Origin: Clostridiales bacterium
Lineage (GTDB): Bacteria > Bacillota > Clostridia > Oscillospirales > Ruminococcaceae
DNA length: 34,844 nucleotides
Reading direction: 5' to 3'
NCBI GenBank assembly: GCA_029007575.1
Contig: JAQXIB010000148.1
Location: 1 to 34,844, forward strand
The notes under the pieces: generated by a model
Databases searched by the model: none
The model's input: only the letters and a program-made list of their open reading frames with translations
Told to the model about the DNA's origin: nothing
In this document: in pieces, positions 4,765-34,375 of the stretch
Numbering within the stretch: the first letter of the stretch is position 1
How the letters are laid out: each line of letters begins with the position of its first letter
Program-made: the position numbers and the translations under genes

Positions 4765-4776
4765 AACCTTTTTCCT

Positions 4777-4869: not shown

Positions 4870-4915
4870 CAGGCATCCAGCTCGAGAAAACTCTCTAACT
4901 GAATGCCTGCTTTTA
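4870..4915. terminator. Candidate bidirectional terminator between the orphan ORF and the sigma gene
   Basis: caggcatccag (4870-4880) pairs with ctgaatgcctg (4899-4909) with one mismatch. It is flanked by aaaac on the left and cttttatt on the right, so a T-run follows on both strands. Confidence 0.45.
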
Positions 4916-4987
4916 TTACTGCAATTATGGTATGTAAAACAGCTTTTTATCTTTACCTATATTAAAAGGTTATGGGGGACTTTATTA

Positions 4988-5638: not shown

Positions 5639-5672
5639 TTATATCTGCTAATGAGAACTTAGATTTTAATGA

Positions 5673-6278: not shown

Positions 6279-6342
6279 CTCGATTTTTTATTATGTCAAA
6301 ACGATTTATAACACAGTAAAAGAAACGCATCACGGATATTGT

Positions 6343-6600
6343 GTGCTTCCGCTGAACAGGCATAATGCGAAACATCCCAACAAACTTCCAAGCGATTATC
6401 CGATTTGCGAAATAGGACTCGCCATCCACAAGGACGGCAAATGTACCAATGGCGACAAGAAAAATAAAGGCTGTATCAAATATGTCACAATTCCTGATGG
6501 CTACCGACTTTCTATTGACAGCAAGTGTGTTTTTAAGAAAATTTATGCTCTGAGAACCGAAGCAGAACGCTACCATTCAAGACTAAATATCATTTCAATA
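6343..6600 (+). pseudogene. C-terminal fragment of a DDE transposase (IS5/IS1182-like)
   Basis: ...KDGKCTNGDKKNKGCIKYVTIP...FKKIYALRTEAERYHSRLN matches the Cys-cluster plus Y..R...ER..s.l pattern at the C-terminus of many DDE transposases. There is no catalytic N-terminal part. The fragment is cut off by the acetyltransferase gene on one side and the GH123-like gene on the other. Confidence 0.4.
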
Positions 6601-8245
6601 CGATATTTTCTGCAATTTTTCGATTCAGTTTCTCTCTTGTCTGCAAAATCCACTCCGCCTCCCGTGGATACTGTCGAAAGGTAAGCGGACTGCCGCACTC
6701 TTGTTCAAGCCATGCCACAGTTGCTTCTCTGCCAATCTGAGTTTCCAACAGTTGTAATGCTCGCATATCCTGTAATGATTCGTAAAATACCTTTTGCCTG
6801 ATTGATGAAACCGGCTGTCCGTTTTCTCCGGGATATACAATAAAAGCATCACCAGAAGGGAACATCTCTCCGGCATCAGTAACCGCATAAGGATCAATGA
6901 ACTCCCGTGAAAGAAATGTAAACCAAAAGTTATATCCCCATTGCAGAAATCCTTCTATCTGATAACGATAAAGTTGCCATCCTAGAATGCGATTTCTGAC
7001 AGACGGCATGGCCATCATACGATTGCTGACATCTACCGTTTGTCCGCAACAATAATATGTCCATAAATGCGGAATATTTGCTTCCAGAAAAGCATCGATA
7101 TGATCGGTGGAAGGGATTGGATGCGGTACCAGTCCTTCCTTATAAAATGCAATATCCGACAAAGCATCCATGGTACGGCAATCTCTCAGTATGTCTCTAA
7201 CACTGTCCCTGGCGCAGCGATAGCTTTCCAGTGCTGCTACAGACGGCTCATCGGATATATGAAACCAGCATTGATCCAAACGTCCTTCTTTTTTCAGATG
7301 CTCTTTTAAGGCGAGCAAAAAGCAATTGATAAATGATACATATTCTTGTGAGCGGGCATCAGTATACCAGCCAAACCGTTTTTTCTCTTGCCCATTCTCC
7401 TTTATGACAATTTTCGGCGCATGCTGAGCCCCCCACTGTGTAAACAGATGTGAAATTTCATAATATCGAATGCCGCAATCCCATGCCAAGTCCATAAATC
7501 GTTTTAATTGTACAAAGTCAAAGTGATACTTCCCCTCTTCCCAAGTAATACCCACCAGTTGAACTGTGGGTCGTTCTCCGCCTACTTCGGTATCCAACGG
7601 AGGTGTAAAAACCGGTGTTAAAAGCATATTAGCACCGTAACGAACTGCATTTTTTATATAATTTCTTATAATTTCCCAGTGTTCATCGCTAAACACCGGC
7701 ACCTGATACCTAAGTGCTAAACAGTCACAATGAAACCAGTTTGTATAAATGAGTTTCTGCTCTGGCAATGTGACGCCTATCACCTCAACTGTAATTTCCG
7801 CTTCTGCCCACACCTCATCCGGATTTTGCGCTGAAAAAAGCGTCAGTCGTATCCCATAGTTGCCCGCGCATAAGTTCGAAGGAATTGCTACTTCCACCCA
7901 AGCGCTACGCCACTGTCCTCCAACCAAACTCATCGTTCCGCCGGTAGGTCTCAATACATCGGGATACATTCCCGGGCTGCGCCTGAGAAAATCATTGTCG
8001 CTTTCCGCATAAGCTGGCAGCATAGACGGCACACAGCCGACTTCATAGAGAGAAATATTATCCTTAAAAATAGAGTCTACTCTTATACACGATTCCACTC
8101 GGTTTCCTTCGCAGGAACAAATAGCCCACTGAAATTGCAGGAGTTCTCCCTGTAATACGGATATTGTTTTCAAATTTTTGCATGCAGGTGTCTCATCAGG
8201 AAACACTTTTTCCAAAGAGCTTAATATTCTATGGTCAATTTTCAT
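6590..8245 (-). CDS. DUF4091 / GH123-like glycoside hydrolase (candidate beta-N-acetylgalactosaminidase), cytoplasmic
   Basis: The N-terminus LEKVFPDE, then WFHCDCL...FTPPLD and WFHISDEPS with adjacent Asp-Glu (D332/E333, nt 7247-7252), fit substrate-assisted GH123 enzymes. There is no signal peptide. Confidence 0.6.
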   Translation of the reverse strand: MKIDHRILSSLEKVFPDETPACKNLKTISVLQGELLQFQWAICSCEGNRVESCIRVDSIFKDNISLYEVGCVPSMLPAYAESDNDFLRRSPGMYPDVLRPTGGTMSLVGGQWRSAWVEVAIPSNLCAGNYGIRLTLFSAQNPDEVWAEAEITVEVIGVTLPEQKLIYTNWFHCDCLALRYQVPVFSDEHWEIIRNYIKNAVRYGANMLLTPVFTPPLDTEVGGERPTVQLVGITWEEGKYHFDFVQLKRFMDLAWDCGIRYYEISHLFTQWGAQHAPKIVIKENGQEKKRFGWYTDARSQEYVSFINCFLLALKEHLKKEGRLDQCWFHISDEPSVAALESYRCARDSVRDILRDCRTMDALSDIAFYKEGLVPHPIPSTDHIDAFLEANIPHLWTYYCCGQTVDVSNRMMAMPSVRNRILGWQLYRYQIEGFLQWGYNFWFTFLSREFIDPYAVTDAGEMFPSGDAFIVYPGENGQPVSSIRQKVFYESLQDMRALQLLETQIGREATVAWLEQECGSPLTFRQYPREAEWILQTREKLNRKIAENIVLK

Positions 8246-8349
8246 ATAGCTGTTACCCTTTCTGGTTTAATCTTAAAGAAAAACATTTTTCCTTGTTTTG
8301 AATACTACACAAGTTTTGTTTGTCTTTTGATTTTTTACCACAATAATTA

Positions 8350-9834
8350 TTACAAATTATCTGTTGAAACCAAATGACCGTTTTCCAATACAGCCAATAT
8401 ATGACAGCCGTTTTTATATATGATTTTATTACCAAGTCTGGCACAGGTACCGGCAGTGTTTTGTAACCGCAGACCAATTTGATATGTATTTGTTTCGGCG
8501 GGTATATACAACTGCCCTTCTGCTAAATGCACAACCGGCGTTACTGCCCCGACATCGGTTCGTTTTCGGGAGTACCATCTTTCTGTACTGCCAAGCGAAC
8601 ACTGAGAAATCACATATCCGTCCATACTGAGCAAGAGCAACTCCGCTGTCAAGTAAAACGGTGCAGAAAAGCCGTAATTGACGAGTGAAAGCTGAACCGA
8701 CAAATGTCTCGGTTCTCCTTTGAGAACCTCTATTGCACAGGATCTCAGTTCTAACTTGTATCCTAAATAATCTCGGATATATTCCCACACACTACGACTC
8801 ACAGAGTTTCCGTTTTCATCCAAAAACCAGCCCGGCGAAACCAAGCAACGCCGTTGTTTCAGCCATTCAGGGGTTATCTGATCTTTTTGCCAGCGGCGCA
8901 TAGCATAGACGCGTTCCTTTTTCGTTGCCGAGGGTTCCGACCAATAAAGCACCTTCTGCCGCATCTCTTCGGAAATCTGATTTTCTCGATAACTATGATG
9001 CAGACTAAAAGATGTAAAATGATGATCACTCAGTTGACACAGTACCAAACGCCCGTTAATTTCCCACGGGCATGTGGCTCCCCAGAACAACTCACCGTCT
9101 ACCGGAACTAAAAAGGTTTCTTCCATCAACTGCTCCCACTGTGCTGTCCCCGGGTCACAGCCGCCGGTATCCGGCTTTGTTTCTCCAAACACACTGTCTA
9201 TGTGAAACCCCAAGCGGCGGTATAATGAATCCTCTTTTTCAATCAGATTTTTATAAACCGGAAGGCGCATTTGCAGGTAAATCGAAGAGGGAGTAATTCG
9301 TGCCACTTCCCGAATTAAATCTGCACAATCATAGATTTCAGTATAATTATGCCATTCGCCCCATGCCCCAATTAAGCCAATCTGAACCACATGAATAGCA
9401 TCCACATAGCGTGTAAGAAGCGGAGCAAGTTGTTTTAAATGAAGAAAAATCGTTTGTTGGGAAGCTTGTCCCCAACTTTTCTCTACATGACTTTGATAAA
9501 CAAACCGCACCAAAAGCTTGATTTTAAACTTCCGGGCATAGTCAAAATTGGCACAGATGCGGTTTATACCTGCCGCATCTATCTCTTCTCCTTTGCTGTA
9601 TCCGGTAAGGTAAAAATAAATCTGTGCCAATTGCGGATGCTCTGACATATAGAACCTCCGCCAGTATTTTAATCCCTCTGTCGGATCCTCATGACACGGA
9701 AAATCCGGTATTGGTCGATTAGCTACATTAACAAAGGTTTCCATGCGAAAACCCCTGTCAGGGTTTTCCCATAACAACGCATCCTGAGTGCTGTCTATGG
9801 ATGGATATGTAAAAATTTTATATTCGGTATTCAT
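8350..9834 (-). CDS. DUF4874/DUF4832-type putative glycoside hydrolase, paralogue 3 (cytoplasmic)
   Basis: It shares with 12896-14236 and 14438-16069 the motifs NPDRGFRME, IYFYLTGY, LVRFVY, GAWGEW, GFHIDS, DGELFW, HHFTSFSLHHSY, YIRDYLGY and LVNYGFSAP. There is no signal peptide. SD AAGGAG precedes the start. Confidence 0.6.
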   Translation of the reverse strand: MNTEYKIFTYPSIDSTQDALLWENPDRGFRMETFVNVANRPIPDFPCHEDPTEGLKYWRRFYMSEHPQLAQIYFYLTGYSKGEEIDAAGINRICANFDYARKFKIKLLVRFVYQSHVEKSWGQASQQTIFLHLKQLAPLLTRYVDAIHVVQIGLIGAWGEWHNYTEIYDCADLIREVARITPSSIYLQMRLPVYKNLIEKEDSLYRRLGFHIDSVFGETKPDTGGCDPGTAQWEQLMEETFLVPVDGELFWGATCPWEINGRLVLCQLSDHHFTSFSLHHSYRENQISEEMRQKVLYWSEPSATKKERVYAMRRWQKDQITPEWLKQRRCLVSPGWFLDENGNSVSRSVWEYIRDYLGYKLELRSCAIEVLKGEPRHLSVQLSLVNYGFSAPFYLTAELLLLSMDGYVISQCSLGSTERWYSRKRTDVGAVTPVVHLAEGQLYIPAETNTYQIGLRLQNTAGTCARLGNKIIYKNGCHILAVLENGHLVSTDNL

Positions 9835-9849
9835 CTTGCAAGCTCCTTA

Positions 9850-11760
9850 TCACCGGGAAACTGCGGCAATACTATACAGCTTCACCTGATTGAAAAATGA
9901 TGATGCCGGCACAAATTTTGCCGAAACGATTTGTTGCTCCGGATAAGGATTGGGGTATACGCAACGGTACACCATCTCATTTGATTGCCAAACCGGTACT
10001 GCGTTTCCCGAAATTTCCAAGAGAGAGGTGCAATACTCCAACTGATCAAACTCCCCATTTGGCTTTTGAGAAAAATGATTAGTGGACGCAGCAATATTTT
10101 CACCAAAAATCACAGGCACCTGCACCGTATTCCCACCGGACATTGTGATTTGATAATACCCGATACTATCCTTTGATCGATCCACCATATGACCGTCAAA
10201 ATAAAATTGGAATGGCCGAACGAAATCCGTGGTATGCAAAATATCAAAATAGGAATCATTTAACACATTGCGTTGTTGCCGTTCAAAACAATATGTCAAA
10301 ATTTCCACTGCGCGCTGAGCATAGTCTTCTTCCCGATAGTCCCCCCAAAAGACAACAGCACAAAACGCAAGATTAAAGAAGATTCCGTTGCGGCAGATAT
10401 AATCGGGATGTAAAGCGCTCCAATTTGATACGCAGCCTCCGTTTATCCCGGCACGCAGCCGGCGCTCAAATTCCGGTACCGCAGGACCGTTAAGATTACC
10501 AAACACCGTTGCAAAGCCCCTACTAAGCAGATCCTCATCAAGCCGACGATCCACTGTCCAAATCCAGTGCATCACCTGAATATCTCGGGGGATCAAATCA
10601 ATGGCCTGCCATGTAGCAGGGACAGACTCATAATGCCAGTCAAATGTATCCTTGACCGCAGCTGCACCACCAAAAGCGTAGCCGCTGGCACAATGAGCAT
10701 TAAGCAATTTATCCGACCACATCATCGTGGATATCCCTTTTTTGTGTAAAAAACCGTGTATTGTTTTAATATCCTCAGCAAAAATTTGAGCCGAATCAAG
10801 TGTTTTGCATTTTTCACAGATCGCTATCGAATTAAGCTCGTCATGAGCAATATGCACTACCTTTGGATCAAATACATCTATAACTTCCTCCAGTACATCA
10901 AACAAGAGAGCATAACTGTCCGGATTGGAAGGACAGTAGGTATCAGGGAATGGATCCTCCTTACGCTCAGCCAACTCCGGGTGTCTTGTCAAAAGATAGT
11001 CACTATGAGAAAGGCTAGGGACCTCCGGAATAACCTCCATTCCCCGTTCGCGGCAATATTTTACCAATTCACGCACCGTATCCTGAGATAAATAGCCTCC
11101 GCCGCCGTTTTGAGTATGGATTGAATTTTTTGCCCATGAATACTGCTCTTGAATTTGGATCGTTTTCCCGGATGATTCGTTCATAAAACGAGCATATTCT
11201 ACCCATCCCTCATTAATTTCCGGGTGGTGCTTGTATTCCATGGCACCGCCTACTTCCAGAATTACTGTATTGCAGCGCAGAGAAAGCGCCGTATCAACTA
11301 CTTCGTGGAAATAGACCAGTTCCTCAGGAGCCGGTAAAAAAATCTTCAGCCCTCTGAAATCACACTTTGGGGTGCAATAAATTAACCCGTGCCGCCAAAT
11401 GCCATCCTGACACCAATCCACCAGCGCCCATGCAGCATATATCAGCCCGCATAACGTATTTGAATAGGCAACAATTTCGTTTTCCTCTATAAGAATACAA
11501 AATGCGTCCTGTCGAGGAGCGCGTATCTGTGTACCCAATTTCTTTTTACAAATCGCCAGTTCTTTTTCTTCAAACCGCTGACAGAAGCATATTCTTTTTA
11601 AAACTGTAGCCGCCGATTGGTTCAAATTATTCTCTTGTTTTGCAAATAATTCGGTGTGCAAAAGCTTGAGCACCGAATTCGGACCAAACAATGCAGTTTC
11701 TCTGGAAAAGCAGGAAAAAGTTGTTTCAAAAGCAGTATATGGATAAAAATCTTGCATCAT
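9850..11760 (-). CDS. GH20-like (beta-N-acetylhexosaminidase superfamily) protein, cytoplasmic, divergent
   Basis: FRGLKIFL..., RGMEVIPEVPSLSHSDYL and VVHIAHDE (D307/E308, nt 10837-10842) parallel the GH20 motifs RG.mLD, ViPEid.PgH and HiGGDE. The usual H-x-H..DD strand is replaced by ILEVGGAMEY. There is no signal peptide. Confidence 0.5.
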   Translation of the reverse strand: MMQDFYPYTAFETTFSCFSRETALFGPNSVLKLLHTELFAKQENNLNQSAATVLKRICFCQRFEEKELAICKKKLGTQIRAPRQDAFCILIEENEIVAYSNTLCGLIYAAWALVDWCQDGIWRHGLIYCTPKCDFRGLKIFLPAPEELVYFHEVVDTALSLRCNTVILEVGGAMEYKHHPEINEGWVEYARFMNESSGKTIQIQEQYSWAKNSIHTQNGGGGYLSQDTVRELVKYCRERGMEVIPEVPSLSHSDYLLTRHPELAERKEDPFPDTYCPSNPDSYALLFDVLEEVIDVFDPKVVHIAHDELNSIAICEKCKTLDSAQIFAEDIKTIHGFLHKKGISTMMWSDKLLNAHCASGYAFGGAAAVKDTFDWHYESVPATWQAIDLIPRDIQVMHWIWTVDRRLDEDLLSRGFATVFGNLNGPAVPEFERRLRAGINGGCVSNWSALHPDYICRNGIFFNLAFCAVVFWGDYREEDYAQRAVEILTYCFERQQRNVLNDSYFDILHTTDFVRPFQFYFDGHMVDRSKDSIGYYQITMSGGNTVQVPVIFGENIAASTNHFSQKPNGEFDQLEYCTSLLEISGNAVPVWQSNEMVYRCVYPNPYPEQQIVSAKFVPASSFFNQVKLYSIAAVSR

Positions 11761-12815
11761 GGAGCAGGTTCCTTTCTGGGTTTGGTGTTCAGTTTGCGCA
11801 TCTGTAATGGACTAATGCCATATATATTGTTAAACGCCCGGTAAAAACTAGCAACAGATAAAAAACCGCATTGAAAAGCGATATCAGTCACATGGGTATC
11901 TGTGGTACAAATTAACTTCAGCGATTTTTCCACTCGCATGCGATTCAAATACTGAGAAAAAGAAATACCTATATGTTTTTTAAACAAAGCAGACAAATAA
12001 GTCGGGGTAATAAAACATTCTCTAGCTACCTCTATTAAAGTCAAATTTTTCTGAAAATGATCCTCCATATAATCAATTGCCAACTTCACCGACGGATGAA
12101 TCGCATTAGAAACAGAAATGCACGAAGTCTCTGCCTTATCCTTGGAAAGCTCCATCCGATAGATATACGCAAACATTTCCAAAAGACAACACTTGATAAT
12201 TGTCTGGCTGCCGGGTTGACGCTTCGCATACTCCTGCAGGATACGGTCAAATGCCTTTAAAATAGGTAGATTTTGCGGCAAAGCGGCTGAAATCACGCAA
12301 TATCGGACAGAAAAATTCATAAAATCTAAAATATCCGTTTCCGCGCCAAAAAAATCTTTGGTGAAAACTTTTTCAGGGGTAAAGGAAATCTCCTCTGCAA
12401 ATCCCTTGCCGGGACCATCGATCCATGCATGAGGAATATAGTTATTAAATAAAATCAAATCTCCCTGCTTCAAGGTCAACGCCTTCTGATCCGCAAGATA
12501 GAGAACCTTACCCGATGTGATTTTGGTGATTTCACAATATTTATGCATATGAAAAGTAAGCTGCTGCGGCAGAGTAAATTCTTCCGGCAATTCCATGTGT
12601 TCAGGCATCACCTTATCATAAGCTGTACTGGCATCCGGATTTCGCAACCGTATAACAAACGGTCCCTGCGTCTGATGCTGAAATTCCGGCACCTTATCCG
12701 AAGGATACATGGACAAATCCATAGAGGAGTTTCCAACTTCAAATTCCGGACTGATACGAATGGGAAACACGGCAGAGGTCGGCAAATGATCCAAATAATA
12801 AAAATTGATATTCAT
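11757..12815 (-). CDS. AraC/XylS-family transcriptional regulator (N-terminal cupin-like sensor, C-terminal double HTH)
   Basis: The C-terminus LTLIEVARECFITPTYLSALFKKHIGISFSQYLNRMRVEKSLKLICTTDTHVTDIAFQCGFLSVASFYRAFNNIYGISP is an AraC-type HTH. The start is placed at ATG 12815, after the SD GGAGG. The stop overlaps the next gene's start as ATGA. Confidence 0.85.
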   Translation of the reverse strand: MNINFYYLDHLPTSAVFPIRISPEFEVGNSSMDLSMYPSDKVPEFQHQTQGPFVIRLRNPDASTAYDKVMPEHMELPEEFTLPQQLTFHMHKYCEITKITSGKVLYLADQKALTLKQGDLILFNNYIPHAWIDGPGKGFAEEISFTPEKVFTKDFFGAETDILDFMNFSVRYCVISAALPQNLPILKAFDRILQEYAKRQPGSQTIIKCCLLEMFAYIYRMELSKDKAETSCISVSNAIHPSVKLAIDYMEDHFQKNLTLIEVARECFITPTYLSALFKKHIGISFSQYLNRMRVEKSLKLICTTDTHVTDIAFQCGFLSVASFYRAFNNIYGISPLQMRKLNTKPRKEPAP

Positions 12816-12895
12816 ATGTGATTTACCTCCACAAAATGCACTCAAAGAAATTCCACTAACTGCGTCCGCCGCTCAACATGTAACCCTCTATACAA

Positions 12896-14236: not shown

Positions 14237-14437
14237 ATCATTCTCCCGTAATCTCGTAACGTAGTCAAAAGAAGTTAACATGACACAAATAATACAGATT
14301 CGGTTTTCAGAAACCTATAACTATTTTAATGTTCTTTCGGACACATTTTTTCGGTATCTGCATTGCCTTCACTTCGTTAAAAAAACCAATATCTATTAAA
14401 AATACTATCCTTTACTCTTATTACACTGCAAAATGAC

Positions 14438-16069: not shown

Positions 16070-16133
16070 ATTGCCGGCACCCTGCGATGCCGCACCACCC
16101 TTTCTCATTATATAAATCAAATCATATTTTTAG

Positions 16134-21405
<5,272 letters not shown>

Positions 21406-21422
21406 CCCAACCACCTCATTCG

Positions 21423-23670: not shown

Positions 23671-23683
23671 AACCAAGCCTCCT

Positions 23684-24544: not shown

Positions 24545-24626
24545 ATTATCACCCTATTCGGAAATACTTTTGGGTACCCTCACCCGTCAAGTTAGCATTA
24601 ATCGGCCTGTGTTTATCTGTAACAGG

Positions 24627-25544: not shown

Positions 25545-25548
25545 TTGA

Positions 25549-28401
25549 TCACTCCTTTTCAACCAAACGGAAATCGCTGCGTTTGCGCGTTAATTCGTCG
25601 TTTATCTCGCGGGTGTAGTTATATAAAGTCTCGCGAGAATTTCCATTGTTATAGACGACCTTTCGAAACGCATTGTTAATATTACGGGACAAGTAATAGG
25701 TAGCCAAGGTCTGCGGTAAATCAGTAAAATCAGCATAACTGTCAGAAATAGCGTCTTGAAATGCTTCCGGCCAGACCACTTGACTTTGAACTTGCTGGTT
25801 GGCGCTGTAATACCGACCGGATAATCCGAGCATACTTTCAACTGTGTCACCATATTCCTTTTGTGTATCAGCACAAGACCACCAATCAAGGAAAGCCGCC
25901 GCCTCTTTTTGCAATACAGATTTTCTCATAATCACAGAACCGGTAGAAGATGTTATCTGTTCTCTGTGAATAACTCCGTCACGCATAGTACCCGGAATCG
26001 GAACGATACTCCATAATCCGTCAATTTCCGGTGCAGCTGCCGACAGCTTATTATACAAAGACATAGACATGATGCCCATGCTCATCTCTCCGGTACGAAA
26101 CCGGTTAAAGAAGTCAAAGGAAACCGGAATTCCGTACAATGTATATAGTTCAGTCCATTGACGAAAAACCGAAACTGCGTTGGAATTATCAAACAGCACC
26201 TTGGAATTATTTTGATTGTAAATCGGCAGTCCCGCCTGCTGCAAAAGCATATAAAAGGTATTTTCATCGCTGGAAATACCTGCCTCCAGATTATTTTGCT
26301 GCAACTGCGCTGTCACTTCATAAACTTCGTCCCATGTCTGAGGAGGTTCAAGATCCAGCTGTTCAAAAATATCAGTACGATAAAACAGCATACTGAAAAT
26401 CTGAGTATCCGGCATGGCATAAACGCCACCCTCACAAGTGTATGGGATAAGAGAATTTGCTCTAACACGTTGTTTCCATTCCGAAAAATACGAAAGTTCT
26501 AACAAATTGACAATTGCTTCTCGGTAAGCCAGATTGACCGGCGTTCCCTTAGGCAAAAACATGGCCACATCCGGTTGTTGATTTCCCACCACAGCCTGCT
26601 GCAACACATCTGCACTGCTGATAAGACTCAATTTAACCGGCACACCGGTTTTCTGAGTAAACTTATTGTCAATCATTCTCTTAAGGATTCGCATTTGATC
26701 TCGGCCGATATCCGCACCCGAATCCACAGCGGAAGTACAAGCCCAGACTTTTAGAGTCTGACCGCTGCCGTCATTTTGACTGCCAATCTGGGAATAATCA
26801 GTGCTAAAGGAGTAAAGAAAAGTTTGAAACCGGAACCAAAGAAATTCAAAAAATCCTGTGCTGGTTTCAGGCAATGCCTGACTTCCGGAAGTAAGCACAA
26901 TTCCGTCCAGCTGCAACGGGCTTTCACGGAAACGAAGCAATAAATCCGCCAGAGTACTGATGTTAGATTTATACCGATCCAACCTAGCCGGAATCGTATT
27001 TGGCTTCTCAGATAAACTCTTCAATTGACTAACAATTTCGTAAACAGCTGACGCCTCACTGCCCTTGGTACCGGTCTGACTTTCAATTTCTTCGGCCGCA
27101 CGCTGCAAAATTTCCGCAATACTGCTCAAAGTACTTGTCAAATTTGGAATTTGTCGATGAAGGAAATAATCATTATAGAGGTCGGGTGAGGTCCCAGTAA
27201 TCATAATAATCTGACGATAAAGGGTATTCATATCAGATAAAGCGCTCTCGATATTGGATAACGCCACATTTATCGGAGAACTGCCGATTTCCAGACGCAG
27301 TTGATGATTACCTTTCGTAAGATATACCGGCGTTTCTTTGTTGCCCAATGTCACATAATTCCACCCTTTGGAATAAGGAAAAATCAGCTGTTTCATCTGC
27401 GAAAATAAGATTTCTCCATCAATTGTCAACCGACGGGATACATCCAACCCACGCAGAGTGGATTGCTTATACTTAAAGGAAATTTGATACATACCATCTT
27501 TGGGAACAGAGATAGACCAGCAAATCCACTGCCCACGCTCCGACCAGTTATCTCCGCCAATTACATTAAGTAATATTTTTTGAGGATCGCTTGGGCTAAT
27601 AGCCGGATTGCTATTGTCATTTTCCGGAACCAAGGCAGAATCAGATTTATAAAGCGTCTGCTCCGCCTCGTGAAATACCAGTTGATTTTCCGTAGGAATA
27701 TTCGTTTTCAAAGATGAGAGATAGGAGGCATAGTCCGGCACTGCTTCCTCTCCGATCAAGAGCGAGCGTATTTCCACCGAAGACTGCACCCCTATCAATG
27801 TTACCTGATTGGTTCCAGCCGGAAAGTAAAAATAAAAGCTATCCGCCACATAATTATCTACCGCGTCGAAATACTGGGTATTAAACACCTTTGCCGCCTG
27901 CTGTAAAGGTACCATATCATTACCGGCGTTATCCTTAATAATCGTCTCTGCATCCTCATAAACCCGGTTCAATGATACAGCGCTGCTTTCTGCAAAAGGA
28001 ACTTCGCCATTAATTTGTACGCCGACTTTAAGCGTCGCAGCAAAATCATCCGCTGCCCGATAGTATAACCCCACTCGATAAAGACCTGATTTCTCTACAG
28101 TCAGCTGCCAGGTGGCGCTCCCCCCTTTTGTTAACAAAAGGGATTCCTCAGTTTTTACGGGCAAAGAATTTGTAAGTACAGCATCAGCTGCTGGTAAAAT
28201 CTTTTTCGTTTCTACAATAGAATATTGAGCATAGTGATTCCAATAGTCGGCAAAAGCCATATTGATATCATTGTCAGCAGCTGTCTTATTTTCGCCGCCC
28301 AAACAGGAGCCGGATACAGTTTTTGCCGACACAGGAGGCCATGAGGACAACAAAATAAATGTAACTAACAACGCCATTACGGAAGACAGATATTTTTTCA
28401 T
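25549..28401 (-). CDS. Giant (~950 aa) extracellular solute-binding protein: signal peptide, two CBM6/35-like beta-sandwich modules, a helical spacer and a C-terminal family-1 SBP fold
   Basis: MKKYLSSVMALLVTFILLSSWPPVSA is the signal peptide. Two modules share the pattern SGLYRVGLYYRA...LKVGVQINGE and DGMYQISFKYKQ...RLTIDGE (ORF aa ~60-386, nt ~27280-28260). The C-terminal ~400 aa look SBP-like (TLKVWAC...QPDVAMF...). The start is at ATG 28401, after the SD GAGGTGA. Confidence 0.7.
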   Translation of the reverse strand: MKKYLSSVMALLVTFILLSSWPPVSAKTVSGSCLGGENKTAADNDINMAFADYWNHYAQYSIVETKKILPAADAVLTNSLPVKTEESLLLTKGGSATWQLTVEKSGLYRVGLYYRAADDFAATLKVGVQINGEVPFAESSAVSLNRVYEDAETIIKDNAGNDMVPLQQAAKVFNTQYFDAVDNYVADSFYFYFPAGTNQVTLIGVQSSVEIRSLLIGEEAVPDYASYLSSLKTNIPTENQLVFHEAEQTLYKSDSALVPENDNSNPAISPSDPQKILLNVIGGDNWSERGQWICWSISVPKDGMYQISFKYKQSTLRGLDVSRRLTIDGEILFSQMKQLIFPYSKGWNYVTLGNKETPVYLTKGNHQLRLEIGSSPINVALSNIESALSDMNTLYRQIIMITGTSPDLYNDYFLHRQIPNLTSTLSSIAEILQRAAEEIESQTGTKGSEASAVYEIVSQLKSLSEKPNTIPARLDRYKSNISTLADLLLRFRESPLQLDGIVLTSGSQALPETSTGFFEFLWFRFQTFLYSFSTDYSQIGSQNDGSGQTLKVWACTSAVDSGADIGRDQMRILKRMIDNKFTQKTGVPVKLSLISSADVLQQAVVGNQQPDVAMFLPKGTPVNLAYREAIVNLLELSYFSEWKQRVRANSLIPYTCEGGVYAMPDTQIFSMLFYRTDIFEQLDLEPPQTWDEVYEVTAQLQQNNLEAGISSDENTFYMLLQQAGLPIYNQNNSKVLFDNSNAVSVFRQWTELYTLYGIPVSFDFFNRFRTGEMSMGIMSMSLYNKLSAAAPEIDGLWSIVPIPGTMRDGVIHREQITSSTGSVIMRKSVLQKEAAAFLDWWSCADTQKEYGDTVESMLGLSGRYYSANQQVQSQVVWPEAFQDAISDSYADFTDLPQTLATYYLSRNINNAFRKVVYNNGNSRETLYNYTREINDELTRKRSDFRLVEKE

Positions 28402-28441
28402 CAAAACATTCACCTCTGCAAACAGGGTCATACGCATCGTG

Positions 28442-29401
28442 CTAACCTACTAATCCGGTCTTTTCAATGCTTTCAGTAAAATATTTTTGTGTGAAGATGT
28501 ATAAAACCAATACCGGCAATATCATCATCAAGCAGGCCGCCTGTTCCACTACTACCATGTAGTATGGGTCAAATGCGGCATTTCCTGTGGCGACCTGAAA
28601 AGCGGGCCGAATGCCTGCGATTCTTACCGCCAATGTCGGAAAATTGCCAATATAAATGGATGTGATATAATAATCGTTCCAATACCACACCAAGGTAAAC
28701 AAAAAACACACCAAAATCACATTGACTGCATTGGGAACCATGATTTTGAAATATGTACCCAAAAATCCAGAACCATCCACCATAGCAGCATCTTCCAGCT
28801 CTTTAGGCATAGAATGATATGCCTGGCGGAATATCAAAATAATAAGACCGCTGCGAATCCCCTGTCCGAATAATGCTAAAATTGCAGTCAAAAATGGGGT
28901 TCCAAGCAATGTGAGTTTGCTGGGTTCTCCGGTAATCAGCTGAATAATTCCGAAAAAATCAACGCTTTGAAAGTTAAAATAGGTCGGCAACGCAATAATC
29001 TGCTGAGGTACGATGATAGTCAGCAAAAGCACCCCTATTACAACAGAAAAGCCATTATTTTGAAACCGCCCCAGTCCATACCCCACCATGGAGCAAACGA
29101 AAATCTGCGCAAGCGTGCTGGTACCGGATATAAAAATCGTTCGACCCAACAACTTCCAATAGTCTAAAACCTCTGCAGTAAACACAATATTATGCAACGT
29201 TAATTGATTGGGAATCCAAACGACCTGTGGACTATAAACATCCTCCACCGTGCGGAATGCCATGCTGACCATGTAGAGAATCGGATATAAAATAACAAAG
29301 GCCAGACAAATCATCAAAAGTGCCCGAAACAGCTTCCAGCAAATTCTGCCCAAGTAATATGAAACTGAACTTCCCGGTAACGAAGATGATGTGTTTTTCA
29401 T
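28442..29401 (-). CDS. Carbohydrate ABC transporter permease (MalG-like), importer 1
   Basis: Multi-pass membrane protein with the EAA loop EDAAMVDGSGFLGTYFKIMVPNAVN. Confidence 0.85.
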   Translation of the reverse strand: MKNTSSSLPGSSVSYYLGRICWKLFRALLMICLAFVILYPILYMVSMAFRTVEDVYSPQVVWIPNQLTLHNIVFTAEVLDYWKLLGRTIFISGTSTLAQIFVCSMVGYGLGRFQNNGFSVVIGVLLLTIIVPQQIIALPTYFNFQSVDFFGIIQLITGEPSKLTLLGTPFLTAILALFGQGIRSGLIILIFRQAYHSMPKELEDAAMVDGSGFLGTYFKIMVPNAVNVILVCFLFTLVWYWNDYYITSIYIGNFPTLAVRIAGIRPAFQVATGNAAFDPYYMVVVEQAACLMMILPVLVLYIFTQKYFTESIEKTGLVG

Positions 29402-29416
29402 ATGCTACCCCTGCCT

Positions 29417-30319
29417 TTAAGATACATACTTTTTGTTTATCCGAGAAACTATCCATAGCAACAATCCGATAAATGCGCTGATTACCACAAAATAAATCCA
29501 TGCCAGCGCGCTGCCATAAGAAAATTTCACATTGGTGAAAATAGTATCAATAATATATTTCATCAGCTGGTTGTCATAGCTCGAAAGCATCTCCACCATG
29601 GAATAAATAAGGTTTATCATGATATGTGGAATAATTAACGGAAAAGTAACCTTCCAAAAACATTCCCATGCAGTCGCTCCCTCCACAGCACATACCTCAT
29701 AATAAGAGGGAGGAATAGCCATGATTCCAGCCATAAATATCAAAATTTGTACGCCGCTTTTCCAGACCAAATCCATAATATTTCCAATCAATGCGCCCAA
29801 GAAATCAACAATAGTTTGAGGAAGACCCATATTAAAAAGAAAATCCATGATCTGACCGGTGTCAAATATGTTCATGCTACCGGCTGCTTCCACCAGTGAA
29901 GTTGTACTTAAATTATTTTTCATAATGGAAACAACGACACCGCTGGTGATAATCACCGGCAAAAAGAAAACTGCCCGCATAAAGACCCTTCCGTGAAAAG
30001 GCTTGCTGAGAATATTAGCGATAAATAAGGAAAACACCAAAATGGCAGGAATGGAGTAAAGCATAGGCGCAAGCACATTTTGATAATACCAAAGATAGTT
30101 GGTGTCTTTTGTAAAGGCGTAAATATAATTTTCAAAAACACCGGAAGGCAACGGCCTAATTAACAAACCACCTGATCCTGTATTGATAGAAACCTGTACA
30201 AATGAGTAATAGATTGTTGTAACCAGCGGCCACAGAAAAAAGAACGCCGCACCGATTATCCACGGCAATACAAACAGCCAACCTGCCAGAATTCTCTTTT
30301 TTTCGTAACTTAGTTTCAT
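29417..30319 (-). CDS. Carbohydrate ABC transporter permease (MalF-like), importer 1
   Basis: Multi-pass membrane protein with the EAA-like loop YEVCAVEGATAWECFWKVTFPLIIP. The start is at ATG 30319, after the SD AAGGGAG. Confidence 0.85.
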   Translation of the reverse strand: MKLSYEKKRILAGWLFVLPWIIGAAFFFLWPLVTTIYYSFVQVSINTGSGGLLIRPLPSGVFENYIYAFTKDTNYLWYYQNVLAPMLYSIPAILVFSLFIANILSKPFHGRVFMRAVFFLPVIITSGVVVSIMKNNLSTTSLVEAAGSMNIFDTGQIMDFLFNMGLPQTIVDFLGALIGNIMDLVWKSGVQILIFMAGIMAIPPSYYEVCAVEGATAWECFWKVTFPLIIPHIMINLIYSMVEMLSSYDNQLMKYIIDTIFTNVKFSYGSALAWIYFVVISAFIGLLLWIVSRINKKYVS

Positions 30320-30395
30320 ACTATATACTCCCTTTTGAAAAAGTGCTGTAACGGTCACACCGGTGATGCACCGTTACAGCATATAAAACAACGTA

Positions 30396-31919
30396 CTACT
30401 TGGTGCCTCTGAGTGTGGAATTTATCTCGTATTTCAACTCATTTAAATGAGCTGAAACAGCTGTGGAAGGCGGAATTTGTTTAACAAAAATATCCTGCCA
30501 CATATTATTACGCACACTCACCCAATTTCCAAACCCGTCCACTTGGGTATTAATCCGAACAGATTTATTACGATAGGCATCAATAATTTTTTGATGTTCT
30601 TCTGAAATATACTTACGAGTATTCTTCATTGTTTCCGCGTCGTTACGATGCTCATAATCATAATTCGACTTAAAGAAATAATAAGCCGCAGCGCCCAACG
30701 GATTTTTCGCGCCGGAAGGAATTCCTCCGGCGGCAATGATGGAAGGAGCATACACAGTCTTAGTGTCCGGCCCCTGCGGCGGCGGACAAACGCCGATTTC
30801 AAAGTTTCCGGTATTATAAAGATCATAATATCCGATGGCATTCCATGGCCGTTCAAAAATCATTGCCGAACGAGACTGCTTAAAAAATTCGCCCCATTGA
30901 TCAGAATACAGATACGCTTTTCGTTTGGTCAAATCCGCCAACAACTGCATTCCCTTGTAAGCGGAAGCCTGATTAAGCGTAATTTCTACGGTTTTGTTAT
31001 CTTTAATCTCTACTTGCCGATTACCATTGGCAGACACAGCCCAATCCCACCACCATGTGGCGAAGCCGTAAACATCAGTAGTGCCATCACCATTTTCATC
31101 CGTCGTCATATCAAGTGCAACCTGTTTAAAGGTTTCAAAATTCCATTTTCCCTCGTTATAGTATTCTATGGGTTCCTTCTGACCGGCGTTTTCGAACATG
31201 GTTTTATTATAATAAATCATACCGAAATCACTATTGGGAAGCAAAGAAGAATACATGCCGTACCTCTTGCCGCTCCATTTGAACAGACTCATCACCTGTT
31301 TATCCCAGGTTTTATCCGCAATATAAATATAGTTATCTACCGGCTGTAATACATTATTAGCGGCAAATCCGGCAAATTGATTGTCAAAATATTGAAAATA
31401 GTCCACTGTGTTTTTAGCAGCTACACTTTGTAGGAGTTTGGTTTTAAATTCGTTCCACGCCATTACTTCCCACTGTACCTTGCAGCCATATTTTTTATAA
31501 AAAGCATCTGCCAGTTTCAGATTCTCTTTGCTTGGATCTGCAGCGTTATAAACCTTTACAGTAGTCCCTTTGATTTTAGAATAAAAATTATTCGGCGTAG
31601 GTTTTTCCGTAATCTGTTCACTTTCGGCACCCACAACATCCTGCTTACCATCCGTACCCGTGCTTGAAGCAGGCTTCTTATCCGGCGTAGAGGTTTTTCC
31701 CGCTACATTGTCGAAAGAGTTTGCCGAAACCGTGCTGCTTTCAGCGTCAACACTGGAATTGTCTTCCAACAGATTGCTATAACCGGTATCCTCACTCTGC
31801 GAGGCTTGGGAAAGAGAAGATGCGTCGACTTTATCGCTGCTTTTTCCGCATCCTACGATAAATGTACTGAACACCATCACCACCGTAAATAACGCAATGG
31901 CTCGAATTCGATACCTCAT
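30396..31919 (-). CDS. Family-1 extracellular solute-binding lipoprotein, importer 1
   Basis: MRYRIRAIALFTVVMVFSTFIVGC carries a lipobox and is followed by an S/T/D-rich tether and an SBP-like body. The start overlaps the upstream stop as ATGA. Confidence 0.85.
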   Translation of the reverse strand: MRYRIRAIALFTVVMVFSTFIVGCGKSSDKVDASSLSQASQSEDTGYSNLLEDNSSVDAESSTVSANSFDNVAGKTSTPDKKPASSTGTDGKQDVVGAESEQITEKPTPNNFYSKIKGTTVKVYNAADPSKENLKLADAFYKKYGCKVQWEVMAWNEFKTKLLQSVAAKNTVDYFQYFDNQFAGFAANNVLQPVDNYIYIADKTWDKQVMSLFKWSGKRYGMYSSLLPNSDFGMIYYNKTMFENAGQKEPIEYYNEGKWNFETFKQVALDMTTDENGDGTTDVYGFATWWWDWAVSANGNRQVEIKDNKTVEITLNQASAYKGMQLLADLTKRKAYLYSDQWGEFFKQSRSAMIFERPWNAIGYYDLYNTGNFEIGVCPPPQGPDTKTVYAPSIIAAGGIPSGAKNPLGAAAYYFFKSNYDYEHRNDAETMKNTRKYISEEHQKIIDAYRNKSVRINTQVDGFGNWVSVRNNMWQDIFVKQIPPSTAVSAHLNELKYEINSTLRGTK

Positions 31920-34375
31920 TCGTTATAGCCCCTCCTTTTTCTTCCGATTAAACAGGCAAATGACGCCATAGAAAGTAAAGCTAAAACAGGTAATACGGTG
32001 CGATCGCCTGTTTGGGGCAAATCGTTATCCTTATTCTCCGTCTGTGTATTGTCATCAGCTTCATCATTAGGTGTATCGGGATTTTGGGGCTGATCCTGAT
32101 CTTCCTTTGGATATCCTATCTCATTATCCCCGTTTTCCGTCACAATCAGTCCAGGCAGTATATCGCCCTCGTTTAGAGCATATATGGCATCTAAATAAAG
32201 CGGTTCCGCTGTAATTTGAGAGAGCGTCAGATCCCACACGCTCAGCAAGGTAGAGAGATCCAGTTGTTCAATGCTGATACTATCTTGCAATTGGAAGTTC
32301 TGCGTATCCAGTTTAATCCAACCGGAGAAGCCATATGGTAGATACACCATATCCTTTTTAGTCAGTGCATCAACCCATTTCGAGCCGCCATCCTTAAACA
32401 GTTCCGCTTGATTACTGAAAAATCCTCCGTTATTTCTCCAATATCCGTTTTTCCCGTCGGAGAGCTTAGAACGAAGTCCCAGACTAATCCCAAAATATTT
32501 GGTGCCGTCAAGCCCTACATATGTATCTGATTTTGAAGATGGCATCCCAGGCACGCTAATATGCAAGGCAATATACCGTTTGCCCTTTACAGCATTAAGC
32601 GCAGAATCATTAAAGTTACCTACTACATTAGCCTCTAATATTAAAGGATAGTCCTCATTGTTGGCAAACACTTTGCAACTATGTTTGCCGTTTGCAACCT
32701 GTTCATCAGAAATCACGGTTGATACGCTACCAACCAATGGCGTGTTTTCTACTGCCCACAAAATCTGTGAATTTTTGTTGGTTTCATAATTCAAATCTGT
32801 TCCCACTTTGCCGGCAGTTTCAAAATCCTGAATCATTCCGGCGGCATTGGTTTCTGCTTTGTTGTAACCAATGGTATCGTTTCCGCCCTCGGTGAAAGTT
32901 AACCCGGGAACCTTATCAATGGAATCTGCAGCATATACAGAATCAATATACACTTTACCAAGCGCATTGCTCACATTGCTAAGCGCAATATCAAAGTTAT
33001 CTCGCAACGCAGTTTTATCCATAGAAATCTTTGTGTCAGAGTACATGAGAATAAAATCATCCATATTAAAGCGCACCCAACCGGTAAATCCGTAAGGAAT
33101 CTCGGCATGATAACCGTTTGTGATCCCCCTGACCCATTTCGAGCCGCCGTCCTTGAGCAGTTCTATCTTGTCACCATTGGTGCCGCCATCAATAGCAAAA
33201 TACTGTGTTTTATCTTCTGCATCTGCAGTTTTCATTGTCAGAGACAACGAATAATTTCGGGCATAGAACTCTTCAAAAAAACCATCGGGATCTTCCGGAA
33301 TAGCTACATGAAACAAGATGTACTGTTTCTCACCTACTCCAGCAGGGTCATTTACCTTTAGAACCGCAGAAGGCGAATAGGTTCCATCATCCTCTGCATC
33401 CTTTACCGATACAGCACAGGAATTGCCCGAAACAGCCTTTTGATCAGAAACGGTCACAATCACATTACCGGATGCTCCGTCTACGCCCCAGAAAGACTGT
33501 GCATTCTCGTTTCCTGCCAGATTATCGCCAACGCTACCGTTGGAATCGAAGTCGGCAATCAGCAAGCCGTCATGATCTACCGGCACCCCCGGAACTTTTC
33601 CAGTTAAGCCTATCAGCGTATCACCCTCGTTAACCGCAGACATATCACCTAATAAAATAGGATAGCCTTTATAGACTTGCGTTAAATCTAAAGCAAAGCA
33701 ATCAATTAAGTCACCCATATTGATGCGATCCGTGTCTTTTCCCCAAACCTTGCGTAAATCTGCGGTCTCTATTTTAACCCAGCCGTCAAAACCATACGGC
33801 AATAAAACATATTGCCCGTTGGTGGTAGCTTTTTCAGCCGTTCCATTTGCCGTAACCAAAGAAGCTCGTTTTTCAAATCGATTCGCGACAAATTCCGAAT
33901 CATCCTGATTGGTAGAGGAAAAAATATAAAACCATCCACCATCTGATGTACGAATAATCGGTGCAAAGCCAAAGCAGGCGTTACCTTCTTGGTCTACAAT
34001 ATCTGTCCTGCGTTCTGATGCAGGTACCTCTGGAACCGTCACATGAAACATAATTGCACTTTTGGAAGCCGTTTCCTTATTGAGATTCGTCATGGAATCC
34101 GAGGCATAGGCGGCATACCGCACAGTAAAGGATGTCTTAACCTTAAATGTATCTCCGCTGGCTTGCAAAGCGCAAGCGCCATTGTCCAAGCTAACATCCA
34201 CACCGTTTTCCACGCCCCAGAACATTGAATCCTTGTAGCTGGTATTCTCTGCCGCCGCATCAAAACTTTGCATAGAAACTGCCTGTCCTTCTGCCGCCAA
34301 AACAACACCGGACAGCGAGTGAACCATGCTTAACACCAATGCCGCTGCAAGACCGACCGATAGAAATTTTTTCAT
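31916..34375 (-). CDS. Sortase-anchored (LPXTG) surface protein with three tandem ~250-aa modules of unknown family; candidate glycan-capture protein
   Basis: The signal peptide is MKKFLSVGLAAALVLSMVHSLSGVVLAAEG. Three repeats each carry FWGV(E/D) or LWAVE, HV(T/A)(V/I)P or HISVP, and PYGF(D/T/S)GW(V/I)(K/R). A D/N/Q/P/T-rich linker follows, then LPQTG (nt 32006-32020), a TM helix and an RKRR tail. Confidence 0.75.
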   Translation of the reverse strand: MKKFLSVGLAAALVLSMVHSLSGVVLAAEGQAVSMQSFDAAAENTSYKDSMFWGVENGVDVSLDNGACALQASGDTFKVKTSFTVRYAAYASDSMTNLNKETASKSAIMFHVTVPEVPASERRTDIVDQEGNACFGFAPIIRTSDGGWFYIFSSTNQDDSEFVANRFEKRASLVTANGTAEKATTNGQYVLLPYGFDGWVKIETADLRKVWGKDTDRINMGDLIDCFALDLTQVYKGYPILLGDMSAVNEGDTLIGLTGKVPGVPVDHDGLLIADFDSNGSVGDNLAGNENAQSFWGVDGASGNVIVTVSDQKAVSGNSCAVSVKDAEDDGTYSPSAVLKVNDPAGVGEKQYILFHVAIPEDPDGFFEEFYARNYSLSLTMKTADAEDKTQYFAIDGGTNGDKIELLKDGGSKWVRGITNGYHAEIPYGFTGWVRFNMDDFILMYSDTKISMDKTALRDNFDIALSNVSNALGKVYIDSVYAADSIDKVPGLTFTEGGNDTIGYNKAETNAAGMIQDFETAGKVGTDLNYETNKNSQILWAVENTPLVGSVSTVISDEQVANGKHSCKVFANNEDYPLILEANVVGNFNDSALNAVKGKRYIALHISVPGMPSSKSDTYVGLDGTKYFGISLGLRSKLSDGKNGYWRNNGGFFSNQAELFKDGGSKWVDALTKKDMVYLPYGFSGWIKLDTQNFQLQDSISIEQLDLSTLLSVWDLTLSQITAEPLYLDAIYALNEGDILPGLIVTENGDNEIGYPKEDQDQPQNPDTPNDEADDNTQTENKDNDLPQTGDRTVLPVLALLSMASFACLIGRKRRGYNE

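Follow-up and report, generated by a model that had tools for sequence, protein, structure and literature searches.

A probable Gram-positive glycan-utilisation locus in a Clostridiales bacterium pairs a multi-copy uptake cassette with a candidate substrate-specific enzyme set

How does a Gram-positive bacterium capture a glycan at its surface and make the first cut in it, when every glycosidase that can be recognised in the locus resides in the cytoplasm? The question is raised by 17 consecutive minus-strand open reading frames (ORFs; G1-G17), which span positions 6590-34375 of contig JAQXIB010000148.1 (Clostridiales bacterium, assembly GCA_029007575.1). This contig of 34,844 nucleotides (C148, 34.8 kb) is analysed here over its whole length as the window and belongs to a metagenome-assembled genome (MAG) of 2.18 Mb in 308 contigs (84% complete, 5.8% contamination). 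Our answer, which we consider probable, is that the locus is a Gram-positive polysaccharide utilisation locus (PUL) in which a generic nine-gene uptake cassette is joined to a substrate-specific enzyme set, with capture and first cut at the surface, import, and breakdown in the cytoplasm. The substrate-specific set would consist of G1, G12, the glycoside hydrolase (GH) family 2 and GH20 enzymes (G11, G15), G17, G13, G16 and an AraC-type regulator (G14). The order of the genes, their domains and export signals, the homologies and folds of their products and the degree to which the cassette is conserved were computed, and it is from these that we infer activities and substrate. The 17 genes are listed with their coordinates and Pfam support, and the family labels given to them in a first-pass annotation, made from the letters alone, agree closely with the Pfam assignments.

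G1, 31916..34375, minus strand: sortase-anchored LPQTG protein with three repeats (Pfam: Gram_pos_anchor only)
G2, 30396..31919, minus strand: lipoprotein solute-binding protein (SBP) of the second CUT1-type importer (SBP_bac_1, E 8.5e-16)
G3, 29417..30358, minus strand: ABC permease of the second importer (BPD_transp_1, 24.4 bits against a cut-off of 26.4; ~6-7 transmembrane-like segments)
G4, 28442..29401, minus strand: ABC permease of the second importer (BPD_transp_1; conserved cassette partner of G3)
G5, 25549..28437, minus strand: giant secreted binding protein (SBP_bac_1 at residues 582-854, E 4e-16)
G6, 24627..25562, minus strand: ABC permease of the first importer (BPD_transp_1; 44-54% identity to cassette paralogues)
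G7, 23684..24544, minus strand: ABC permease of the first importer (BPD_transp_1, E 4e-10)
G8, 22117..23676, minus strand: extracellular NHL beta-propeller and TPR protein (NHL, E 3.6e-13; TPR matches)
G9, 21423..22133, minus strand: Yip1-family membrane protein (Yip1, E 1.8e-13; five transmembrane-like segments)
G10, 19153..21414, minus strand: membrane-anchored DUF5696 protein (PF18952, E 3.8e-139)
G11, 16134..19199, minus strand: LacZ-type GH2 (Glyco_hydro_2_N; Glyco_hydro_2_C, E 1e-96; Bgal_small_N, E 1e-63)
G12, 14438..16120, minus strand: surface lipoprotein with DUF4874 and DUF4832 (Pfam, E 1.8e-34 and 1.3e-22)
G13, 12896..14281, minus strand: cytoplasmic DUF4874/DUF4832 paralogue (Pfam)
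G14, 11757..12845, minus strand: AraC-family regulator with a cupin-type sensor domain (HTH_AraC, HTH_18, AraC_binding)
G15, 9850..11760, minus strand: cytoplasmic GH20-type enzyme (Glyco_hydro_20, 58.6 bits against a cut-off of 22.3)
G16, 8350..9834, minus strand: third, cytoplasmic DUF4874/DUF4832 paralogue (Pfam; paralogy)
G17, 6590..8245, minus strand: PF13320 Group 4 (GH123-related) enzyme (GH123_cat, E 3.8e-114)

In the mechanism we envisage, G1 and the N-terminal extension of G5 would hold the glycan at the wall, G12 would make the first cuts outside the cell (G10 may cut too) and the two CUT1-type importers would take up oligosaccharides, energised by a MalK/MsmK-type ATPase encoded elsewhere. 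In the cytoplasm, G17 would remove terminal beta-linked N-acetylgalactosamine (GalNAc), the GH2 enzyme beta-galactose (Gal) and the GH20 enzyme beta-N-acetylhexosamine (HexNAc), with G13 and G16 handling the remaining linkages, while the AraC regulator would sense a product and activate the operon.

A recurrent cassette and the layout of the locus

Nine of the 17 genes, G5-G10 plus G2-G4, form a conserved generic cassette. When the 17 proteins were compared by tblastn with the remaining contigs of the genome and ORF maps of the matched contigs were drawn, paralogous blocks emerged with the order large SBP, permease A, permease B, NHL/TPR, Yip1, DUF5696, permease C and permease D. Such cassettes, complete or partial, lie on four contigs (C36, C65, C120, C123) and fragments of them on seven more (C131, C147, C238, C248, C211, C98, C182), which amounts to roughly 6-8 cassettes in the incomplete 2.2-Mb genome. 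Paralogues are ~27-34% identical among the surface proteins, 43-54% in the first permease pair and 31-43% in the second; G5 has six paralogous matches elsewhere in the genome (26-34% identity) and G8 seven paralogues.

The same arrangement extends well beyond this genome. With permease G7 as a probe, 31 syntenic loci (L023-L053) were gathered from Paenibacillus, Gordoniibacillus, Lachnospiraceae (Roseburia, Acetatifactor, Lachnotalea) and other Bacillota MAGs, and all 31 keep the core of large SBP, two permeases, NHL/TPR, DUF5696 and a further permease in the same order. Of the downstream pair, 30 loci also show the second permease, L023 breaking off behind the first, and Yip1, matched in 5 of the 31, always sits between NHL/TPR and DUF5696. 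By Pfam, all cassette members are present in the window. Here, the second block of SBP and two permeases (G2-G4) lies upstream of the giant SBP, whereas elsewhere it lies downstream of DUF5696; the orthologue of G3 in other cassettes is the permease behind DUF5696, and G2-G4, complete with a binding protein, move together as an importer in their own right. A role of DUF5696 as stand-in binding protein for the second permease pair was considered and rejected, since that pair moves with its own SBP, G2. An ATPase gene is absent from the locus; a candidate of the MalK type, bearing OB_MalK, lies on contig C51.

DUF5696, the marker of the cassette, is abundant: at E <= 1e-3, it matches 4225 clusters among 1.84 billion representatives. 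Pfam scans count six matches in the genome studied here and 3, 12, 21 and 25 in four congeneric genomes, those with 21-25 copies being only 2.7-3.1 Mb in size. The domain is present in 17 of 31 genomes (our own plus 30 relatives) and in 32 of 401 sampled Bacillota genomes (~8%; 19 of 278 genera), some of which reach 22 first-look candidates.

What flanks the cassette varies from copy to copy in the loci compared. One has GH42, GH35, GH51, GH2 and GH78 beside it (L007), another GH78 and a GDSL esterase (L008), others a dockerin protein (L006) or GH32 (L004). In our own genome, the copy on C123 is accompanied by GH38, three beta-helix/pectate-lyase-like proteins, an FAD oxidoreductase and a HAD hydrolase, and that on C36 by a beta-helix protein, a 774-residue AraC-type regulator with a GGDEF-like domain and a 1601-residue ORF. 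The first-pass annotation treated the surface set as specific to this locus, but nine of the 17 genes recur in the genome and across Bacillota beside unrelated enzymes.

As an observation on its own, the NHL/TPR and Yip1 proteins are fused in several cassettes (L006 7848-9947, C65 4600-6993, C147 356-2413, L108 18877-20378; ~700-800 residues), and these fusions support the view that propeller and Yip1 membrane domain are physically associated.

Do the cassette and its neighbours in the window form one locus at all? That 17 genes should be packed closely on one strand, as had been described, is borne out by the ORF coordinates. Taking the longest ORFs, junctions range from -47 to +156 nucleotides (nt) and, with the most plausible starts, 10 of the 16 are overlaps or gaps of at most 15 nt. 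Two ATGA overlaps of 4 nt had been noted, one joining the stop of G1 to the start of G2 (31916-31919) and one the stop of AraC to the start of GH20 (11757-11760), and both are implied by the coordinates and start codons; the 8-nt overlap at 22117-22124 holds if the Yip1 gene starts with the ATG at 22124, upstream of which lies AAGGGAAGG. The GH2 gene most likely starts at 19136 and thus would not overlap the DUF5696 gene, and revised starts are likely for G5 (28401), G12 (16069), AraC (12815), Yip1 (22124), G3 (30319) and G6 (25544).

An alternative would be that several independent units stand side by side, the LPXTG protein being an adhesin, the two transporters unrelated and the enzymes a lac-like block, in which case no single pathway should be read from them. 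Gaps of 156 nt (G12/G13), 104 nt (G16/G17) and 82 nt (G6/G7) speak for it, as do a regulator in the middle of the locus, a second importer that has changed sides relative to the canonical order, which shows rearrangement, and a G1 without counterpart in any related locus. These gaps count against our proposal too in that they could harbour internal promoters, and scans for promoters and terminators gave about as many matches as in shuffled sequence, which cannot demonstrate one transcript. On the other side, all 17 genes share one strand with the tight junctions given above, no convincing intrinsic terminator was found on the coding strand in any gap (again with scan counts similar to shuffled sequence) and linkage of the cassette to DUF4874/4832 and GH123_cat recurs in independent genomes. 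To our minds, a mere juxtaposition of independent units is therefore very improbable, and we infer from gene spacing alone that the 17 genes form a single operon. The largest gap (14282-14437, 156 nt) separates the exported G12 from the block of cytoplasmic enzymes and regulator (G13-G17) and is the most likely position for an internal promoter.

Cytoplasmic enzymes and the glycan they point to

Export was judged by a simple hydropathy and lipobox script rather than by SignalP. By this measure G1, G2, G5, G8, G10 and G12 are exported or anchored, while the N-termini of G11, G13, G14, G15, G16 and G17 are not hydrophobic. The script agrees with the earlier view on both counts: GH2, GH20, the GH123-like protein and two DUF4874/4832 paralogues lack signal peptides, and the exported set consists of the LPXTG protein, two binding proteins, the NHL/TPR and DUF5696 proteins and one DUF4874/4832 lipoprotein. 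Together with Pfam, it also places every glycosidase of a characterised family (GH2, GH20, PF13320/GH123-type) in the cytoplasm, as had been stated.

Among these, G17 matches GH123_cat with 381.8 bits (cut-off 23.1) and, over its full length, two PDB entries described as 'monosaccharide-releasing beta-N-acetylgalactosaminidase' (8k2l, E 7.7e-158; 8k2n, E 9e-117), whereas the classical, BvGH123-type structure 5l7v is matched only with E 2e-12. Hence the label 'GH123-like' needs refining, G17 being nearer to Group 4 of PF13320. Members of this group are strict exo-beta-GalNAc-ases acting on linear oligosaccharides with non-reducing terminal beta-GalNAc (Sumida et al., PMC11087588); some prefer GalNAc-beta-1,4-Gal, and no signal peptide is predicted for them (PMC11087588). 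Their DE motif provides the catalytic Asp-Glu pair for substrate-assisted catalysis (PMC11087588) and is found in G17 as HISDEPS. G17 thus resembles the Group 4 enzymes NgaLy and NgaP2 (8k2l-8k2n; PMC11087588) in its full-length match, its DE motif and its lack of a signal peptide, with no difference detected at the sequence level, and is predicted to be an exo-beta-N-acetylgalactosaminidase closely related to this group.

G15 has an Asp-Glu pair (in HIAHDE) and finds GH20 chains in the PDB (9fyl, E 1e-18; 8bal, E 4.5e-17), but it covers only profile positions 56-227 of 348 of the GH20 model and, by Pfam, has no Glyco_hydro_20b domain, which falls short of a full-length GH20; it is a divergent member, of the beta-N-acetylhexosaminidase type. 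G11, with the full LacZ-type set of sugar-binding domain, TIM barrel and Bgal_small_N, is a predicted beta-galactosidase.

It had been suggested that the cytoplasmic set points to beta-Gal, beta-HexNAc (beta-N-acetylglucosamine) and beta-GalNAc. This is reasonable and is strengthened by the match of G17 to 8k2l: because of the families of G17, G15 and G11 taken together, the imported oligosaccharides would carry beta-GalNAc, beta-Gal and beta-HexNAc, and a substrate with beta-GalNAc and beta-Gal is likely. Host mucin or glycolipid is only one option for it. The same machinery might instead serve a microbial or dietary GalNAc/Gal polymer, such as exopolysaccharide, capsule, teichoic-acid glycans or plant and algal galactans. 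This alternative concerns the substrate only and is compatible with our model; we see it as a real possibility, if one that we do not favour. In support, Gram-positive loci for Pel, a GalNAc/galactosamine polymer, include DUF4832 among their accessory genes (bioRxiv 10.1101/768473), and the proteome of a rumen cellulosome contained a DUF4874-DUF4832-dockerin protein (PMC7480376). In addition, related contigs stem from varied metagenomes, the cassette occurs in soil Paenibacillus, exopolysaccharide repeat units were suggested as targets of several PF13320 enzymes by the authors of the beta-N-acetylgalactosaminidase study (PMC11087588) and a Pfam search of the window found no sialidase, fucosidase, GH101, GH95 or GH29 of the sort that typifies mucin loci. 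Against this, Group 4 enzymes were shown to act on GalNAc-beta-1,4/1,3-Gal termini, that is, ganglio- and globo-type sugars (PMC11087588), and GH2, GH20 and GH123-type enzymes are a typical host-glycan combination in the literature.

Candidate activities at the cell surface

Searches of Pfam, NCBIfam and PDB sequences placed none of the exported proteins in a family of demonstrated activity, and our literature search found no functional study of DUF5696, PF18952, PF16173, PF16116 or the combination of Yip1 with NHL. To this extent, the earlier statement that the surface families have no assigned activity is upheld. It needs qualification, though, in that G10 resembles GH129 and GH101 enzymes and DUF4874/4832 has two invariant Glu residues in an arrangement of the clan GH-A type; the exported proteins are, in other words, related to characterised GH families without being members of them.

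Of the three DUF4874/4832 proteins, G12 and G13 are 33% identical, and G16, the one that diverges most, is 27-28% identical to either. G12 is built from a lipobox, a Ser/Thr-rich linker, a TIM barrel and a beta-sandwich, and an AlphaFold2 (AF2) model of its catalytic part (pLDDT 94.8) shows a (beta/alpha)8 barrel followed by the sandwich. An alignment of 31 sequences reveals invariant NPxRGF, RFxY, WGEW, HxD and GE(M/L)xW motifs, with E145 (in WGEW) and E234 (in GEMPW) invariant throughout; G16 retains NPxRGF, WGEW and the second Glu. In the AF2 model, E234 comes directly behind strand 7 (231-233), and E145 behind the short elements of strand 4 near residues 132-142. The model thus puts one Glu behind each of these two strands, which is what defines the retaining glycosidases of clan GH-A (4/7 superfamily), and so likens DUF4874/4832 to GH5, GH35, GH39 and GH42; the C-terminal beta-sandwich behind the barrel is shared with the latter three.

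At the sequence level, DUF4874/4832 has no match to any of these families; in the PDB, single sequences such as G13 found nothing and a 31-sequence profile noise only. Foldseek with the G12 model found weak, generic TIM-barrel glycosidases, mostly of clan GH-A (best E 1.6e-7; GH39, GH35, GH5, GH2, GH140 and also the GH14 beta-amylase), so that none of the sequence, profile or Foldseek searches against known structures put G12, G13 or G16 into a named GH family. Nor did the literature link them to GH165, an identity that we considered and dropped, and no paper assigning an activity to DUF4874/4832 was found; the domains are mentioned only in passing, in the Pel and cellulosome reports above and in an amphioxus horizontal-transfer study.

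Lipoprotein orthologues of G12 (P0016-P0018) are 40-69% identical to it and cytoplasmic orthologues of G13 48-52% identical to G13; the two lineages are distinct. The nearest relatives of G10 are linked to such genes as well. Both types stand immediately behind DUF5696 in L109 (its DUF5696 43% identical to G10) as proteins of 546 (lipoprotein-type) and 446 (cytoplasmic-type) residues, and in L004 (36%) DUF5696 is followed by URO-D, GH123_cat, DUF4874/4832 and GH32. This recurring pair, one member outside and one inside the cell, is the best candidate for a substrate-specific depolymerising activity, and the model of G12 makes it a candidate for the extracellular glycosidase of the first cut.

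Two observations on the company of DUF4874/4832 are added here. The URO-D (uroporphyrinogen decarboxylase-like) protein of L004 (5523-6578), encoded between DUF5696 and GH123_cat, is unexpected in a glycan locus. Moreover, DUF4874/4832 twice adjoins DUF4978 proteins of 1171-1475 residues, one of them with CBM_X2 (L001 1841-6268, L108 2131-5646), and L001 also has a canonical GH20 and a GH27/36-type melibiase next to them; this is a second recurrent partner set of the family.

For G10, the single sequence found only chance-level matches in the PDB, yet the family profile and the predicted fold agree on a direction. A 75-sequence DUF5696 profile matched ZgGH129/DagB (5opq, 8rzk; E 1e-9) and NagBb (5wzn; E 6e-8) with co-linear segments in the N-terminal domain, the barrel start and the C-terminal domain. 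The AF2 model (pLDDT 93.5, pTM 0.93) has the three-domain GH129 fold, its top Foldseek matches being the GH129-type structures 8rzk, 5opq and 5wzn (E 2e-33, TM-score 0.66-0.72), followed by GH101 endo-alpha-GalNAc-ases and then GH36 enzymes. With three Pfam-GH129 proteins from Bacillota genomes, hhalign aligned the G10 family at 97.5% probability, pairing D503 and D544-G-A-N547 of G10 (DUF5696 positions are in P0001 numbering) with the GH129 motifs ..CDATG.. and ..SEGGN... Like the GH129 enzymes NagBb (alpha-N-acetylgalactosaminidase, 5wzn) and ZgGH129/DagB (3,6-anhydro-D-galactosidase, 5opq, 8rzk), G10 in its model has an N-terminal beta-sandwich, a TIM barrel and a C-terminal beta-sandwich. 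The catalytic Asp is D435 in NagBb and D486 in DagB. In sequence, however, G10 is only 11-13% identical to the GH129 enzymes, the motif positions vary across its family, and DUF5696 is membrane-anchored and always encoded in a transporter cassette. At E<=0.01, G10 matches only PF18952 and not the GH129 model PF11308, for which no match exists in the whole genome either; a fragment of a Pfam-GH129 protein, for its part, had no match in the PDB. Profile and model together suggest a distant GH129/GH101-like protein, and hence G10 is a candidate surface glycosidase or a glycan-binding pseudo-glycosidase.

G1 carries the signals of a sortase substrate: an N-terminal signal peptide and, at the C-terminus, LPQTGD, a hydrophobic stretch and a GRKRRGYNE tail, with Gram_pos_anchor scoring 19.8 bits, just below the 20-bit cut-off. 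For the other surface proteins, the script detected lipoboxes in G2 (IVGC) and G12 (MTSC), a signal peptide in G5, an N-terminal hydrophobic anchor in G10 and, in G8, a signal peptide plus a C-terminal transmembrane segment (residues 475-493). Between signal peptide and anchor, G1 consists of three repeats of ~240 residues (m2-m3, 30% identity, E 5e-36; m1-m3, E 9e-16; m1-m2, E 4e-9). Its single modules match no Pfam family at E<=5 above noise and no PDB sequence, and a homologue is absent from the rest of the genome and from ~110 fetched loci. By these comparisons, no other surface component is as locus-specific as G1, for which we presume a role in glycan binding. G5 (~950 residues) joins an N-terminal extension of ~550 residues, which has sub-threshold Pfam matches only (Golvesin_C, BclA_C), to a C-terminal SBP_bac_1 domain. 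Neither G1 nor G5 matches a carbohydrate-binding module in Pfam, and kinship between the G1 modules and the G5 N-terminus was rejected (blastp E >= 0.02).

Do the surface proteins cut at all? One could argue that the cell is a scavenger which does no extracellular cutting: DUF5696 would be a non-catalytic, glycosidase-shaped binder or scaffold, the G12 lipoprotein a binder or active on very short glycans only, and the oligosaccharides that are imported would have been released by other members of the community and be broken down wholly in the cytoplasm. Several of our own data bear on this and weigh against an active surface machinery. Among 75 DUF5696 sequences, 9 carry Asp in column 503 and 38 carry Asp or Glu in column 544; conservation is instead highest for the acids E141, D171 (in VPDGSGA), D197 and D511 (in YSDF), the first three of which lie in the N-terminal beta-sandwich. 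G10 may therefore be non-catalytic, the GH129-equivalent acids being poorly conserved in its family. For DUF4874/4832, the model lacks a close structural neighbour (TM-score <= 0.40 full-length, ~0.5 for the barrel only), and the putative acid/base sits in G-E instead of the usual N-E. Furthermore, DUF5696 accompanies chemically unrelated enzyme sets, which fits a generic role better than that of a substrate-specific hydrolase, and the surface set is dominated by two importers and two or three binding proteins.

There are counterarguments, however. In G10 itself, the two positions that hhalign equates with the GH129 motifs are both Asp, and conservation of D511 reaches 87%. The catalytic machinery of DagB includes an Asp that the partner subunit contributes with its N-terminal domain (PMC5698469), and so conserved acids in that domain are no argument against catalysis; as DagB also shares only one catalytic residue with NagBb (PMC5698469), a catalytic apparatus in DUF5696 that is shifted relative to GH129 is plausible by analogy. 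DUF5696 paralogues are ~27% identical, as expected if specificity diverges, and G12 keeps both invariant Glu residues, as its cytoplasmic paralogues do. Taking both sides together, we hold a pure scavenger to be unlikely and prefer a model with capture and first cut at the surface. In its most far-reaching form, put forward here only tentatively, DUF4874/4832 would be an unrecognised, clan GH-A-like GH family through which G12 and G13/G16 depolymerise a beta-GalNAc/beta-Gal glycan, with an NHL/TPR-Yip1-DUF5696 complex coupling processing to the two importers as an organisational counterpart, in Gram-positives, of the SusC/D core, with up to 25 DUF5696-marked copies in genomes of the genus.

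Known systems, the flank and significance

In its organisation the locus is of a known kind. Gram-positive PULs (gpPULs) with CUT1-family ABC importers were defined for Roseburia and Eubacterium rectale (PMC5320581), and here, too, glycoside hydrolases, a carbohydrate transporter and a regulator are encoded together. Shared features are binding proteins that are lipoproteins or secreted, the lack of an ATPase in the locus and final degradation in the cytoplasm, and G17, G11 and G15 belong to known families in which they are nothing out of the ordinary. Unlike gpPULs, however, the present locus has two importers together with NHL/TPR, Yip1 and DUF5696 in fixed order, its cassette exists in many paralogous copies per genome and every exported candidate enzyme belongs to a family of unassigned activity. 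With the SusC/SusD PULs of Bacteroidota it shares a conserved core for transport and binding that exists in many copies per genome, each copy having a different set of enzymes and regulator; the proteins are unrelated, though, there is a single membrane, and the importers are of the ABC type and not TonB-dependent, which makes the analogy organisational only. In the literature searched, we met no description of the G1 module, of the nine-gene cassette and how it has expanded, or of a GH-A-like DUF4874/4832 family with paired members outside and inside the cell.

The 3' flank of the locus (258-6576) differs in composition, with a GC content of 35-39% compared with 42-43%, and encodes the following.

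258-1838, minus strand: large serine recombinase
2175-2975, plus strand: KilA-N protein
3164-3553, plus strand: HepT-like toxin ORF
4270-4764, minus strand: sigma-70 region-4 protein
5673-6278, minus strand: Maa/LacA-type hexapeptide acetyltransferase

This flank resembles the remnant of a mobile element that adjoins the locus. Encoded on the same strand as the 17 genes, the acetyltransferase could be an 18th, lacA-like gene.

How Gram-positive bacteria of gut and soil capture glycans and make the first cut is much less understood than the Sus paradigm of Bacteroidota. The present locus sets three kinds of uncharacterised surface protein, the DUF5696 protein, the DUF4874/4832 lipoprotein and the three-module G1, beside enzymes of known chemistry, which narrow the search for the substrate to glycans with beta-GalNAc, beta-Gal and beta-HexNAc. 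If each DUF5696 copy marks a full cassette, this system takes up a large share of the coding capacity of the genomes richest in it. Characterising one copy would annotate thousands of genes and could define one or two new GH families.

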